Shown: positions 563-45,259 of the stretch, one piece after another
Numbering within the stretch: the first letter of the stretch is position 1
Layout: each line of letters opens with the position of its first letter
Assembly (NCBI RefSeq): GCF_964213995.1
Contig: NC_135830.1
Coordinates: forward strand, 7,130,001-7,194,000
Length of the DNA stretch: 64,000 bases
From: Mustelus asterias
Taxonomy: Eukaryota
Direction: 5' to 3'
Made by a program: the position numbers and the translations under genes
The notes under the pieces: model-generated
What the model was told of the DNA's origin: nothing
Seen by the model: only the letters and a program-made list of their open reading frames with translations
Databases searched by the model: none

Positions 563-590
563 CGATTTTGTACCATCTGGAATCACTGTG
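563..590 (-). other. 12-bp-spacer recombination signal sequence (12-RSS) 5' of the J segment
   Basis: + strand reads CGATTTTGT (563-571; 7/9 match to GGTTTTTGT), 12-nt spacer ACCATCTGGAAT, then a perfect heptamer CACTGTG (584-590) abutting the J coding sequence. Confidence 0.92.
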
Positions 591-650
591 CAAACTATGC
601 AACCAGAAAGCTTACCTTTGGCAGTGGAACCAAACTCACTGTAGAACCCA
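591..650 (+). CDS. TRDJ: TCR joining (J) segment, probably J-delta
   Basis: Translates NYATRKLTFGSGTKLTVEP (FGxG motif). Followed by a GTAAGT donor at 651 in phase 1, matching the C exon acceptor at 8100. Confidence 0.92.
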
Positions 651-8099: not shown

Positions 8100-8414
8100 A
8101 GGCGAAAGGCCCGGTGGAGCCTACATTGAGCGTCTTTTACCCGCCAGTGCCACGGGGAGCCACCGGCATCGACACAGCTGCAGTTTGCTTGGCCTCGGAC
8201 TTCTCGCCCAACGCAATCATGCTCTCCCTGTACACGGGAGGATCGGGCCAGGAGGTCAATGTGACAAGACCCAGTGTCCTATTGGAGAGCGGGAATTACA
8301 GGAGCTCGGGTTTTCTCTCTTTCCCCCAATCCGAGAAATCGCCAAACATCACGTGCAAGGCATTTCACGATAATCGAAATTACTCAGTAAACATCCCGCC
8401 CACAGCTGAAATTG
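8100..8414 (+). CDS. TRDC: TCR constant exon 1 (C1-set Ig domain), delta-like
   Basis: TTTTCAG acceptor (8098-8099), phase 1. Protein (K)AKGPVEPTLSVFYPP...TAAVCLASDFSPNAI...NVTRPSVLLESGNYRSSGFLSFP...NITCKAFH has both Ig cysteines and N-glycosylation sequons NVT, NIT and NYS. G|GTAAGT donor at 8415. TCR C identity is near certain; delta rather than alpha is my recall-based call. Confidence 0.85.
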
Positions 8415-9204
8415 GTAAGTTTATTTTATTTTCGTTCACGTGATGTGGGTGTCGTTGGCTTGGCCAACATTTATTGCCCATCCTAAATTGCCCTTCAGCA
8501 GAGGACATTTACGAGTCACTTGCCGGCCAGACCATGTAAGGACGGCAGATTTCGTTCGCTGAAGGAAGTTAGTGAACCAGATGAGTTTTAATGATAATCG
8601 ACAATGGTTTCAGGGTCATCATGAAACTTTTAATTCCAATTTTTAAAAAAATGTTCAAATTTCGCAGCTGCCATCCCCAGGTCAGCATTCTGGGTCGTTG
8701 GATTACCAGTCCAGTGACAATGCCACTGCGCCACTGCGTCCTCTGAGAATGTTTTATGACAGGAAGAACTTGCACTAAATATTATCCATCCTCTTAACGA
8801 CCGAAGGACTCTCGGTGTCATCGTCACTCAAAGTGTAGTCTTTTTGAAAGGTTAGCTGACTAATGATTGACTGTCAATTATCCTAGTCTGGGGATTTCAC
8901 TGCAGGAGTTCCTCAGTGTCTCAGGCCTAACCAGCTTCAGTTGCTTCATCAATCACCTTCAATCCATTGTAAGGTCAGAAGTTGGGATGTTCGCTGATGA
9001 CTGAATAATTTTCAGCACCATTCATGACACCTCAGATCTTGAAGTAGTGCATTACAAATGCAGCAATGGCTGGACAATACTTTGACTGACAAGTTGCAAG
9101 TAACATTTGCGCCACACATGTTCCAGGCAATGACCAACTCCAACAGGAAAGAAGCTAACAACCGGCTCTTGACATTTAATGGCATTACCATGACTGAAAC
9201 AATG

Positions 9205-9585
9205 AACAAAGAACAAAGAAAATTACAGCACAGGAACAGGCCCTTCGGCCCTCCAAGCCTGCACCGACGATGCTGCCCGACTTAACTAAAACCCCTTTCC
9301 CTTCCGGGGACCATATCGCTCTATTCCCATCTTATTCATGTATTTGTCCAGGTGTCCCTTAAAACTCACTATCGTATCTCCTTCCACTACCTCACCCGGC
9401 AGCGAGTTCCAGGCACGCACCACCTTCTGTGTAACAAATCTGCCTCGTACGTCTCCTTTAAACCTCGCCCCTCGCACCTTAAACCTATGCCCCCGAGTAA
9501 TTGACTCTTCCACCCTGGGAAAAAGCTTCTAACTATCCACTCTGTCCATGCCTCTCATAATCCTGTAGACTTCTATCAGGTCAAC
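9205..9585 (-). mobile_element. CR1 3' fragment nested in an older LINE remnant
   Basis: TRGHRFKVRG...FVTQKVVRAWNSLPGEVVE; (TTCTTTG)n tail. Confidence 0.8.
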
Positions 9586-9850
9586 CCCCACTATCAATAT
9601 CCTGAGGGTTAACGTTGCTTAGAAACTGGAGTGGACTATCCATATAAGTGCTGTGGCTGCAAGAGCATGTCGGAGATTGGGAATCCTGTGGTGAGTAACG
9701 TATCTCCTCATCCCCCAAATTCTCTGCACCATCCACAAGACATAATCATGACTGTGGTAGTGTATTCGCCACTTGCCTCGATGAATGCAGCTCCAACAAC
9801 ACTCAGAAATTTGACACGACCCAGGACAAAGCAGCTCCGCTTGATTAACA

Positions 9851-10215
9851 GTTTGTTTATTAGTGTCACAAGTAGGCTTACATTAAAACTGCAATGAAGT
9901 TATTGTGAAAATCCCATAGTCGCCACACTCTGTGCCTGTTCGGGTACACTGAGGGGGAATTTAGCACGGCCAATGCATCTAATCAGCACGTATTTCGGAC
10001 TGTGGGAGGAAACCGGAGCACCCGGATCAAACCCACGCTGACACGGGGAAAACGTGCAGACTCTGCACAGACAATCACCCAAGCCGGGAATCGAACACAG
10101 GTCCCTGACGCTGTGGGCGGGGAGGTGGGGGGGGGGGGGGGGGGTGGGGGAGTGGCGGCGGGCGGGGAGGGGGTGAGGGGGGTTGCAGCAGTACTAACCA
10201 CTGTGCCACTGTGCC
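9851..10215 (-). mobile_element. tRNA-derived SINE (HE1-like family) with internal G-run
   Basis: Reverse complement carries GGCACAGTGGTTAGTACTGCTG (A box), GTTCGATTCCCGG (B box) and the conserved core. Confidence 0.75.
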
Positions 10216-11133
10216 GTTCTAGCACTAAGTACTCCATTCACAAACATCCACTTCTTCCACCACCGATGCACAGTGGCAGCAGTGTGTGCCATCCACAATA
10301 TACACAGCAGTAACTCTCCAAGTCTCCTTCCGCTGAATCTTCCAAACTCACGACCGTTATCATCTCGGAGGACAAGGGCAGCAGATACCTGGGAACACCA
10401 TCATCTGGACGTTACCCTCCATGTCACTCAGCATCCTGACTTGGAAATGTTTCGGCATTTCCTTCACTGTCGCTGCGTCAAAATGGTGGAACTTCTTCCC
10501 TAACAGCACTGTGTGTGTACGTACACCTGACAGACTGCAGAGGTTCAAGCAGGAGACTCACAACCACCTTCTGAATGGGGCAATTAGGGATTGGCAATAA
10601 ATGCTGACCTGCCAGCGATGTCCACATTCCGTAAATGAATAAAAATAATAAGAGCTAACTATTATAATTCAGGGCAGTGTCCAGGAGCCGCAGCTACTGG
10701 TGCATCACCGAGTTTAGGGAAGTATTAAATACTAACCAGGGTACTGGAGAACCCCGCTCCTCTGGAGAAATGCCCTGATATCATTTAATCCACTGCAGAG
10801 CTCAAATCAGGCCTCCGTTTCACGACTTTTTCGGAAGACAGTGAAATACTGCACTGATGGAACGGCCCTGGATCCTGGGTTTTAATCCCTGATGGGGAAT
10901 CGATCCTGCACTCTTTGAACTCAGATCTGGGCCGAACTAAACGGCAGAGCTACCAATGTTTCTCCGTTGTGAATAATCAAGTGAACAAGTCCAATCGTGC
11001 TGTTTGATTCTTACTTTCTTCGTGGCTTTTGGTTATGACAACAACATTATTCAAAATGACATTGAGAACAAACATGGTTACAGTAATGTCACTTGCTTGC
11101 TTAATAAGTCAAATGTCTTTTTTGCCCTTCCAG

Positions 11134-11196
11134 GTAAACCTAAATGCCCTACAGGTCGAAATGATCCCTTGACAGAATCAACTGACACGGAAAACG
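11134..11196 (+). CDS. TRDC: TCR constant exon 2 (connecting peptide with interchain Cys)
   Basis: CCCTTCCAG acceptor; 63 bp; (G)KPKCPTGRNDPLTESTDTEN; G|GTATGT donor; phase 1-1. The long hinge exon is more delta-like than alpha-like. Confidence 0.88.
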
Positions 11197-11634
11197 GTAT
11201 GTGCTTTATTCAACATTTATCAAAGTAAAATACTTGCAAATAGACAGATTGATAAGTGGACAAATAGGCACGGATACAGACCCGGAGATCGAATGATAGA
11301 CATATAGTGAGATGGGGAGAAATATAGATTGTCACACAGAGTGAGGGAGAGAGATATATAAATCGAGGGGGAAAGCGAGAGAGGAGGAGAGGCGGGGAGA
11401 GAGAGAGAGAAATTCAGAGTGAAAGAGAGGTGAAGATAGATAGACAGGCAGGCAGACGGGCGGACGGACAGACAGAGATGGACAGACGGACGGAAGGACA
11501 GGGATGGACAGACGGACGAAAGCCAAGCTGTTAGATAATGGAAAAAATATCACATTAGTGGTATACAGTTGTTTTTCAATTCAAAATGATATATCCATTA
11601 ACCAGATCTATCATTTGTTTCTCTTATTTGGCAG

Positions 11635-11745
11635 ATCGACTGAGGGTGAACTTTCTGTCTTTGACGGTGATGGGGCTAAGAATTTTGTTTTTCAAGAGCA
11701 TTGTCTTCAATGTCATGATGACGGCCAGGGTGTGGCTATTTTGAG
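11635..11745 (+). CDS. TRDC: TCR constant exon 3 (transmembrane and short tail)
   Basis: TTTGGCAG acceptor; (D)RLRVNFLSLTVMGLRILFFKSIVFNVMMTARVWLF* with the Arg/Lys pair diagnostic of TCR alpha/delta TM segments. TGA at 11742-11744, then GTAAG donor at 11746, implying an unlocated non-coding 4th exon. Confidence 0.92.
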
Positions 11746-38837: not shown

Positions 38838-38845
38838 TGACGTCA
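38838..38845 (+). promoter_or_regulatory. CRE in V promoter
   Basis: TGACGTCA about 90 bp upstream of the leader ATG (38937). Confidence 0.7.
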
Positions 38846-38936
38846 GATCAGCCACAGCCAATGCTCTCAGCTTTATCTTGTTCAAGCTTCTGCAGCTTTT
38901 GGAGAAACAAGTCCCTGGAATCCAGGAGCAGCAGCA

Positions 38937-38982
38937 ATGCGGCTCCCCGTTTTCACTCTGATCTGGGTGACATTCATTGTTG
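38937..38982 (+). CDS. V leader exon with non-canonical donor
   Basis: MRLPVFTLIWVTFIV(G), 46 nt, phase 1. Followed by ATGAGT instead of GTGAGT. Confidence 0.8.
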
Positions 38983-39673
38983 ATGAGTTTAATACTTTAA
39001 AAATGAGTTATTTTCTGGAGGAATAAAGTTGAAAAGCAGGACATTCATGTTATACAGGTATTGGACAAATGAATTCTTGCGAGTGGTTTTAGTCTTTTGA
39101 AAATAGATTCGAAAAGCACACTGAAAAGGCGATTTCGAGAAATGGTACTCGGATTGGGAGATGAGAGCTATCAGAATGCAAGATTATGATTACTTTCTCG
39201 ACTGACCAAAGAAACTAACGCAAACCTGACTGATCTATTTATAATGATAACGAGGATTGGTGTGGTGGACGGGGAGAGGATGATTCCACTTGTAGGAGGA
39301 ATCCAAATATATGTCCCAAAATTCTAATGAAACAAATAGATCAACTGGGAATCGGAGAGAAACATCTTTAGAAAGAGTTGGGTAGAATGTGACTCATATT
39401 AACACAATGAACACTTGAGGAGAGGAGCAAATACTTATTTAAAGGTAAACTAAACTAAACAGCTGAGGAAGAAAGGGACAACTGCATTGAGAAGAGGCGA
39501 GAGGGAGGAATCTCCAGGGGACTGTAAACGGGAACATAGATCAGTTGGAGAGAATGTGGTATGATTCAATACATTCAATACATATTTTTATGTTGCACTG
39601 TCAATGAATTTTCTCCCTTAGTTCAATTGAACTTTTAATCAATGTTTTTCCTTTCTTTAACCGTGTGTTTCAG

Positions 39674-39977
39674 ATCTGAGCGATGGAGATTCTGTTCCTC
39701 AGCGGGAATCCTCACTCACACGGACAGAGGGAGAAGATGTCACTTTAAACTGCACCTTTACCGACGATGCTTATTATTTATTTTGGTATCGTCAATACCC
39801 AGGAAAACAGCCTGAGTTTGCAGTCCGGAGAGACAAGAAGGGCGGTTTTGAATTAAAGGCGGATTTCGCTCGGACTCGGTTTTCTGATTCAGTCCAGCAG
39901 TCAGACAATTTGTACCGAGTGACTATTTCGGAGCTGCGGCTGTCTGACACCGCGGTCTATTACTGTGCACAGAGTCT
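39674..39977 (+). CDS. TRAV/TRDV-type V exon with fully open frame (missed by the ORF track)
   Basis: GTTTCAG acceptor; (D)LSDGDSVPQRESSLTRTEGEDVTLNCTFTDDAYYLFWYRQYPGKQPEFAVRRDKKGGFELKADFARTRFSDSVQQSDNLYRVTISELRLSDTAVYYCAQS. Both Cys, WYRQ and DTAVYYC are intact. Confidence 0.95.
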
Positions 39978-40016
39978 CACAGTGATGAGAACGAGTGAAA
40001 TCCTCGTACAAAAACT
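39978..40016 (+). other. 23-RSS, near consensus
   Basis: CACAGTG, 23 nt, ACAAAAACT. Confidence 0.96.
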
Positions 40017-42754: not shown

Positions 42755-43276
42755 AGTTTTTGTACGAGGTCCGCGGGAGCCTCATTTACTGTGGGTCTGA
42801 GTGCACAGTAATACACGGTGTTGTCTAACATCTTCAAATCTTTCATGGACAAGTGAAAAGTGTTTTATGTCTGGCTGAGATTCCTGCTGAAATGTTTAAA
42901 GCCGGGAGCCGTATCGGTAAATCCATAGCCATCGCTCTGAGCAGATACTGAGGAGCTCGGTGTGGATAGTGGCGATACCAGAACAGGACATAGACTGTAG
43001 CTGAACTCGATACAGAGTAACTGCAGGGTATTGCTGAATCTTCACCCTCTGCTGCTTCAACTCCTGGTTCTGACTGGGATACTGAGTCACCGTTACTCAT
43101 CTCTGAAAATAGACAACAGACACGCAGCGGGTTAGAAGGAGTAACAACAACGGAATAATCGCCTAGAAATGGAAATGGGCAATGAATATGGTGGTTGGCG
43201 GATTTCAGTCAAAGGTTCAAAATGACCGACCTGTGATCAGGACAATAACCAGGGACAGACAGAGCTTCACCCCCAT
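42755..43276 (-). pseudogene. TRAV/TRDV-type V pseudogene, inverted, with usable-looking 23-RSS
   Basis: Intact leader MGVKLCLSLVIVLIT(G) at 43276-43231 with GT donor. V exon from 43102: DSVSQSEPGVEAAEGEDSAIPCSYS...LFWYRHYPHRAPQYLLR, frameshift, a TAA stop, then FHLSMKDLKMLDNTVYYCALR. RSS CACAGTA (42793-42787), 23 nt, ACAAAAACT. Confidence 0.93.
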
Positions 43277-44288: not shown

Positions 44289-45259
44289 TTCCTCATCAAT
44301 GGTTGCCTGAGTGATTTTTTCCCATTTCTTTATTATGAAGAACAATTTTAAAAATATGCTTCCGGGAAATGTGCGCCATTTCCTCTAGTTCAGTTACAGT
44401 TTCACTTGTCTCTGTCTTTATGAGCACACTCTACTATTACACCTGTTTCAGATGGTGATTAGCTATGTTCGTCTGCATTTATAAAACCATTAAATTCTGT
44501 TATGGACTGAACAAGTTGCTAATATGCGCGCGGTGTCAAAGTACAAACATTTATTTCCTCATTGCGTCTTAAAATACAGCATTTCTGATTTTGCTGAAAG
44601 CATTTGTGGCCGAGGTCAGAGCAAAGATAACATGGCTGTAACATCGAGATTCGGATAATGTCCAGCAACAACTGAAACCATGCAAAACTTCCCTCATACG
44701 AAATGAATAATTGCAATAAATGTTTCTGCCCGGTTTCGAACCGGGGACCTTTCGCGTGTGAGGCGAACGTGATAATCACGACACTACAGAAACAACTGAC
44801 AGCATAGCGCCGCCAATTGGCCTGACCACAATGTTCAACTCGACTGTGTTGCTGCAGGTTCGAATGGTTATACTGAGAGCCCATGTCACTCAATACAAGA
44901 CAAAAACCGTTTCTTTCAACCTGATTTCTCAACTCATCTTGAACTTCAACATTTATAAGTGGTCGTCCGGCAAATATCTAAGGAGCAATGATTTTAAGAT
45001 GCAGTTGCAGGAAAGAAATGTTTGTATTTTGACACCGTGCATATATAAGCAACTTGTTCAATCCATGGGTTTATAGATGTAGACTAACATAGTTAATCAC
45101 CATCTGAAACATGTCTAATAGGAGTGTTTGCTCATAAAGACAGACACAAGTGATACTGTAACTGAACTAGAGGAATTGGTGCACATTGCTCAGAAACATC
45201 TTTTTAAAATCGGTTTTCATAATAAAGCTATCGGGAAAACCATTCACGCTGATGAGGAA
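44289..45259. repeat. Long diverged inverted repeat (arms ~44289-44575 and ~44991-45259) enclosing the tRNA
   Basis: Left TCCTCTAGTTCAGTTACAGT...TCTGTCTTTATGAGCA...TGTTTCAGATGGTGATT...TGAACAAGTTGCT...CGGTGTCAAA matches the reverse complement of the right arm. Confidence 0.9.
44721..44793 (-). tRNA. tRNA-Val(CAC), D-loop variant and possible pseudogene
   Basis: GTTTCTGTAGTGTCGTGATTATCACGTTCGCCTCACACGCGAAAGGTCCCCGGTTCGAAACCGGGCAGAAACA, 73 nt. Differs from the usual vertebrate Val-CAC D-loop (TGTAGTGGTT) at two A-box positions. Confidence 0.9.

Follow-up and report, generated by a model that had tools for sequence, protein, structure and literature searches.

A wrong-way V gene behind a TCR-delta constant region in Mustelus asterias is probably an ordinary segment of an amplified locus

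Why should a V gene with a good 23-RSS lie downstream of a constant region and on the same strand, so that joining it to the local J would carry the constant exons away? This arrangement occurs in the window, that is, the whole stretch of 64,000 nucleotides analyzed here (C71:7,130,001-7,194,000 of the shark assembly G000, C71 being the window's own scaffold, of 20 Mb). The window sequence contains no N, and its features are as follows.

563..590, minus strand: 12-RSS of the last J-delta, CACAGTG-12-ACAAAATCG, full-length in 19 of 19 copies of J
591..650, plus strand: J-delta, the final one of the cassette's five J motifs (D-delta and the first four J lie left of the window)
8100..8414, plus strand: TCR-delta constant Ig-domain exon
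11134..11196, plus strand: C-delta connecting-peptide exon
11635..11745, plus strand: C-delta transmembrane/cytoplasmic exon, with stop
38838..38845, plus strand: TGACGTCA motif upstream of V1, read from the sequence and presumably of CRE type; the preliminary description began here
38937..38982, plus strand: V1 leader exon, 46 nt
38983..38984, plus strand: V1 leader splice donor, mutated (AT, not GT)
39674..39977, plus strand: V1 exon, TCR alpha/delta-type, open frame
39978..40016, plus strand: V1 23-RSS, near consensus, CACAGTG-23-ACAAAAACT
42755..42793, minus strand: V2 23-RSS, CACAGTA-23-ACAAAAACT, in inversional geometry to J-C
42794..43102, minus strand: V2 exon, frameshifted pseudogene (leader 43231-43276), duplicated along with V1
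44720-44794, minus strand: tRNA-Val(CAC) gene, 1.4 kb upstream of V2

The geometry is real. As the preliminary description stated, V1 and its 23-RSS (39978-40016) lie 3' of J (591-650) and of C (8100-11745), all on the plus strand. Since the J-RSS and the V1-RSS face apart, a local join would place V-J-C on a circle and leave the signal joint on the chromosome; with the 12-RSS at 563-590 this circle, previously put at about 39 kb, comes to 39,387 bp. The D 12-RSS that had been guessed to lie further left is found at C71:7,117,135-162, 12.9 kb left of the window. V genes 3' of a constant gene are familiar from human TRDV3, mouse TRDV5 and TRBV30, all of them inverted genes that rearrange by inversion. 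This TRDV3-type geometry is that of V2 and not of V1.

V1 had also been called the best-preserved V, which holds against V2, the only other V of the window, minus-strand and frameshifted, but not for its leader donor. The 23-RSS of V1 has no heptamer mismatch and one nonamer mismatch; no other 23-RSS of the window equals it, and one of its quality arose in 0 of 200 first-order Markov simulations. The exon is open and contains the V-domain Cys, Trp and YYC motifs, and Pfam PF07686 is assigned to shark homologues at 61-80%; the relatives matched were four genomic models, and no named cDNA relative that could distinguish alpha from delta use was found among them. The leader donor is GT in 17 of 24 examined paralogues and AT in 7, as in the window copy. 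After the leader, the first phase-1 GT, at 39007, makes a weak site, and reading through leads to a stop at codon 30. Given the AT donor, the weak alternative GT and the read-through stop, the window copy of V1 is, judging from its sequence, likely non-expressible. At position 38983, a contig of sequencing run X1 lacks the G and runs X2 and X3 have it; the runs may represent other individuals, and the difference is given no weight here. Run contigs (four runs of unrecorded kind, from one study) contain the V end without a V-J or V-D junction, a result that weighs neither way.

What kind of constant region does V1 stand behind? Among named proteins, models of Mustelus asterias come closest to the C exon (81-97%), and one C-containing model matches at 48% the catshark protein 'Ig heavy chain Mem5-like', which is the NCBI name of the catshark entry IgWVTCRD in Table S1 of PMC12227049. 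A D with a 5' 12-RSS and a 3' 23-RSS and a few J precede the window C. The 160 kb left of the window contain an IgH-like V-D-D-J group and a NAR-TCR-like V with its D, the V family labels being assigned from motifs and from PMC12227049. They also hold a supporting V followed by a stack of two 23-RSSs, additional V RSSs, a single D (12-RSS/23-RSS) and the other four J, and everything is on the plus strand. The catshark TCRD name match, together with the upstream D, NAR-TCR-like and IgH-like segments, identifies the window C as TCR-delta. Supporting V genes followed by a stack of two or three 23-RSSs are seen at C71:7,091,239-7,091,338, 12,229,725-885 and 11,087,676-836.

This Cdelta has many sisters. 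A search with the C exon gave 19 matches at 82-100% amino acid identity and one weak match (112 of 112 candidates scored), the latter being a Calpha-like exon at C71:18.419 Mb, 29% identical to the window C. Three of the 19 lie on C71, at 7.138, 11.043 and 12.271 Mb, all on the plus strand, and the window J is full-length at the same 19 places. All 19 Cdelta exons are open, and they differ pairwise by 0-116 mismatches per kb, so that they cannot all be allelic. One pair is identical (C71:12.27 Mb and C850), and its members differ at D and downstream. Segments of C71 may be present a second time, as haplotype copies, among the unplaced contigs (there are identical V matches and this one 0-mismatch Cdelta pair), and we therefore estimate the true number of Cdelta at about 10-19. 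The window copy has one extra Gly codon at 8247-8255 (TGGSG, against TGSG in the other 18 copies). Two Cdelta-like models (P0010, P0013) of Heptranchias perlo hint at duplication in another shark. Listings of the open-access literature showed no account of numerous Cdelta in sharks or of shark TCR signal joints in the germline; an earlier description of several Cdelta, or of pre-joined TCR-delta segments, is possible.

V1 lies 27-35 kb behind C in 13 of the 19 Cdelta copies, including those of the 82-83% clade. This bears directly on one proposal of the preliminary description, namely that V1 represents a recent inert inversion, a private haplotype or an assembly artefact. The many near-identical duplications of the region, and possible haplotype copies among the unplaced contigs, would favor such a reading. 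However, the orientation recurs on 13 separate sequences, the window is free of N, and Cdelta copies up to 116 mismatches per kb apart are involved; the proposal is hardly credible and is already largely refuted. V1 probably looks backwards only because the assembly has 19 copies of the Cdelta cassette among V pieces, one of them in front of V1. The wrong-way observation would thus follow from cassette amplification, and V1 is an ordinary V in an unusual locus.

Is V1 nevertheless adapted to its place behind C? A deleting element is expected to be dedicated to C, with an RSS conserved beyond any coding role, and KDE and deltaRec are non-coding elements. The preliminary description had suggested a comparable role for V1, and there is a likeness: in the accessible parts of PMC3666889 and PMC2118853, IGKDEL/RS and deltaRec-psiJalpha are RSSs tens of kb 3' of C whose use removes C on a circle, KDE lying about 24 kb behind C-kappa (PMC3666889), and the V1 RSS is likewise so placed that its local use would remove C. 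The V1 RSS might then be under selection to remove Cdelta cassettes, for exclusion or for alpha-lineage commitment. The position shared by 13 of 19 cassettes, the most diverged clade included, agrees with this, as does the window copy, which combines an intact RSS with a dead donor; besides, many Cdelta cassettes would presumably need exclusion.

The V1 family argues otherwise. Half of the 26 close V1 copies (at least 88% amino acid identity) do not lie behind a Cdelta; we examined all 13 that do and 11 of the 13 others. The RSS (CACAGTG...ACAAAAACT) is kept in 11/13 copies behind C and in 10/11 elsewhere, thus equally well at a distance from C; in two of the copies behind C the heptamer is weakened to CACACTG. 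The gene is fully intact in 5 of 13 copies behind C versus 8 of 11 elsewhere. The dead AT donor is commoner behind C (6/13 versus 1/11), in near-identical copies that possibly record one mutation, an excess that fits relaxed coding selection there. Pooled pN/pS is 0.33 over six unique V1-family exons, the pairs compared not being independent; since the exon is under purifying selection as protein and the RSS is no better kept behind C, the family appears to be maintained as coding V genes. In six Cdelta copies the 60 kb behind C contain no V1 match (the contigs C115 and C3311 stop short of this distance), and co-duplication with V2 and flanks explains the shared position. Moreover, KDE and deltaRec keep the coding joint in the chromosome and send the signal joint to the circle, as the accessible text of PMC3666889 has it, whereas V1 would leave the signal joint on the chromosome, and its family is protein-coding. 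This opposite placement of the joints takes V1 out of the KDE class, although a local join would still have a like effect. Exact-pattern searches of the assembly gave no signal joint using the V1 RSS, and a KDE-like role is therefore unsupported; we regard a dedicated C-deleting function as very unlikely.

If V1 does not serve the J-C in front of it, which segments could it serve? The preliminary description had also considered J segments outside the window, and this option gains support from downstream cassettes and a Jalpha-Calpha array on the same strand. As assembled, a D-J-C at 12.25 Mb and a J-C at 11.02 Mb lie on the plus strand of C71, in deletional orientation to V1. The Jalpha-Calpha array at C71:18.37-18.42 Mb is also on the plus strand as assembled, and V1 faces it in deletional orientation: of the J motifs at 18.355-18.435 Mb, many of which have 12-RSSs, 34 are on the plus strand and none on the minus strand; Calpha (plus) follows them, and no Cdelta match adjoins the array. 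A second Jalpha array is carried by C546 (120-240 kb), with many J motifs at 175-215 kb and a Calpha of 72% identity; a degenerate D-delta lies upstream of it. No 12-RSS partner with a J was found in the 100 kb right of the window. Between C and V1, an insulator search with a CTCF consensus gave 11 matches, versus 11.98 expected. The nearest same-strand D-J-C found is 3.9 Mb from V1, and Jalpha is 11.2 Mb away, whereas the local J and D are at 39-53 kb. In one case, at C436:132k, an intact V1 copy and a D-J-C 81 kb downstream of it share both contig and strand. V1 is not alone in its position: among the 19 V matches listed on C71 (best 150 of 1808 candidates scored), 11 are on the plus strand between the window C and Jalpha, and so share its wrong-way geometry, and 8 are on the minus strand. 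Same-strand V genes also lie behind the Cdelta at 11.04 and 12.27 Mb.

Given this layout, the copy counts, the downstream partners on the same strand and the AT donor, we consider it quite probable, on sequence grounds, that V1 is an alpha/delta-type V in a megabase-scale V field of mixed orientation, that it came to lie behind Cdelta by cassette duplication, and that its family likely joins downstream partners and not the local J-C. Block duplication would have spread D-J-Cdelta cassettes, together with neighboring V genes, through the V field. V1-family genes would then join downstream J or D by deletion, V-to-Jalpha or V-to-D, as the observed geometry permits; the window copy, with its dead donor, would mostly form non-productive joins. 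In mammals, V-Jalpha joins delete TRD. A V1-Jalpha join would delete two intervening Cdelta cassettes and leave the window's own Cdelta in place.

Other cassettes carry segments that are already joined. Seven of the 19 contain pre-joined V-D or D-D segments. The 22 matches to D comprise 12 at full length (7 inspected and unjoined, 5 taken as such from match length), six in which a V is fused to D with the D 3' RSS intact (C850, C401, C436, C119, C96 and C71:11.024 Mb), one in which an IgH-type D is fused to D-delta (C138), one degenerate copy (C546), and two in which the D 12-RSS stands alone, head-to-head with a V-type RSS. The fused V is the NAR-TCR supporting V in C850, C401, C436, C119 and C96, and belongs to another family at C71:11.0237 Mb, where a 99% identical unjoined sibling exists at C71:4.704 Mb (minus strand). 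One V-D junction is common to C436, C119 and C96, whose C regions are 11-45 mismatches per kb apart, which suggests that it was inherited and then duplicated. The D-D fusion of C138 (217.4-218.2 kb) puts an IgH-like V with a 23-RSS immediately ahead of D-J-Cdelta, 0.8 kb before J-delta, forming a compact VH-TCR-delta cluster. At C110:85,017-85,098, a NAR-TCR V is fused to its own D (V, then 12-RSS); the two are unjoined in the sister copy at C71:14.348 Mb.

Exact-pattern searches of the assembly found three precise signal joints, none with the RSS of V1 or of the window J. Together, these three and seven coding-type joints, with cuts at the heptamer border, have the character of RAG joints, putatively germline ones. 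Two of the signal joints look inversional, as their flanks are inverted. At C110:113,669-114,525, a D-delta 12-RSS is joined to a NAR-V 22-RSS and followed by a flipped piece of D; with the adjoining apparent hybrid joint to an inverted NAR V, the site reads as a multi-break RAG scar. At C122:398,901-398,967, the 3' 12-RSS of a NAR-cassette D (inverted) is joined to the first of three stacked supporting-V 23-RSSs.

The third, at C71:14,376,776-14,376,842, is a precise fusion of a D-delta 12-RSS with a V 23-RSS; the surrounding 100 kb contain no N, and no Cdelta lies nearby on C71. Its left flank is the cassette sequence upstream of D, 98.2-98.8% identical to three intact cassettes and identical to none, and along 28.7 kb it is 99.2% identical to the sequence that flanks the second D-delta signal joint. 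The right flank is the 3' flank of V0, a different V from V1, and matches C87 (99.7% over 17.8 kb) and C471 (99.9% over 9.6 kb), where V0 is unjoined; it includes a truncated V1 relative and sequence 93-95% like the window at 45.5-59.8 kb, in the same orientation. Among the best 40 of 98 candidates, the ones scored, the flank of the V0 RSS has 20 matches at 95% or more, two of them on other Cdelta-bearing contigs, C119 and C90, where V0 lies downstream of C on the same strand, at 390 and 654 kb, respectively. The V-D joint at C71:11.024 Mb was considered as the reciprocal product of this signal joint and rejected, because the V families differ. Just upstream of the signal-joint cassette, at C71:14,317-14,346 kb, is about 29 kb of CA-rich satellite with many CACAGTG heptamers.

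The C71 joint has the form predicted for the D 12-RSS further left. The product foreseen by the preliminary description, a chromosomal signal joint between a D-delta 12-RSS and a V 23-RSS, thus has one example in the assembly, but with the RSS of a different V, and in candidate geometry only. A single divergent join is the simplest account of it, though not a proven one; it could also stem from an inversion followed by loss, from reinsertion of a circle, from exchange in trans or from a somatic event captured in the assembly.

Divergent joins of this kind are termed 'pseudonormal'. Might they be the commonest fate of V1 itself, an incidental target without a dedicated role, removing D-J-Cdelta and leaving a signal joint on the chromosome? 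The strong RSS, near consensus, is only 39-53 kb from the J and D 12-RSSs, which is the ground for this proposal. Inverted V genes just behind C (V2, and another family at 42-54 kb in C119, C106, C90 and C436) suggest that the region is reachable by RAG. The C71 joint, without a D-J-C nearby, adds to this, as do the same-strand position of V0 behind C in C119 and C90 and the absence of a V0-to-D coding joint among the 22 D matches. On the other hand, the partner in the C71 joint is V0, the assembly searches returned nothing with the V1 RSS or the J at 563-590, the other two signal joints look inversional, and circle reinsertion, trans-chromatid exchange or inversion then loss could yield the C71 scar. 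In the mouse, RAG scanning proceeds upstream from the J-RSS, according to the accessible text of PMC11153149; the same source describes strong Igk RSSs that join by diffusion whatever their orientation, so a local V1 join is not mechanically barred. We judge it unlikely that this is the usual fate of V1, and retain the reading of an ordinary V with downstream partners.

How does the locus compare with known systems? In the part of PMC12227049 available, the elasmobranch TCR alpha/delta locus is similar in having NAR-TCR and IgH-type V near Cdelta and a Calpha behind a J array, and its Table S1 places alpha/delta V genes in both orientations over megabases in four other elasmobranchs. It presents the TCR as a translocon with a single TCRD entry per species, 15 kb before TCRA in catshark and 80 kb before it in stingray, and translocon is also the term in the shark TCR reviews (PMC6795676; PMC12227049, section 6, in the passages available). 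Mustelus differs by its 19 Cdelta copies within the V field and by the second Jalpha-Calpha-like array on C546. The mouse Ig-lambda clusters, as sketched in the accessible text of PMC3014032, show the same wrong-way geometry, the V of a later cluster lying behind the J-C of an earlier one; they have one orientation, and cross-cluster rearrangement is rare. Unlike these, Mustelus has a shared V field of mixed orientation, not cluster-private V genes, and megabases separate V1 from the closest downstream partner found.

Inherited RAG-type joints in a clustered locus are known from germline-joined shark Ig genes and germline hybrid joints (excerpts of PMC2193156 and PMC2193153). Pre-joined V-J is also described for newt TRD, whose hap2 has two C-J-V clusters (PMC12698447, in the portion available), and Table S1 of PMC12227049 contains 'gj' NARTCR V entries. 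Mustelus departs from the shark Ig and newt cases in its V-to-D-delta and IgH-type-D-to-D-delta joints and in the retention of precise signal joints. Germline signal joints are postulated in PMC2193153, the available text of which cites shark evidence for coding and hybrid joints only.

A broader scenario can be imagined, in which a TCR-delta translocon became about 10-19 Ig-like D-J-C cassettes in a V field, and RAG prunes these cassettes by divergent joins to V genes behind C, the signal joint being kept and D-J-Cdelta lost. This would occur in thymocytes as a form of exclusion and occasionally in the germline, the joint at C71:14.377 Mb being a fossil of it, and V1, whose RSS is near-perfect and whose leader is dead, would be a target in transition to a pure deleting element. 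As a whole we find this scenario rather improbable.

V1 itself is an ordinary segment and probably non-expressed; what matters is the locus, with its 19 Cdelta, seven pre-joined cassettes and three signal joints. If inherited, the joints would be direct footprints of germline RAG activity on a TCR locus, including the reciprocal product that the accessible text of PMC2193153 postulated. They would then make three matters testable: the passage from a translocon to a cluster locus, the way in which a T cell escapes the expression of many delta chains, and the use of divergent RSSs in vivo.
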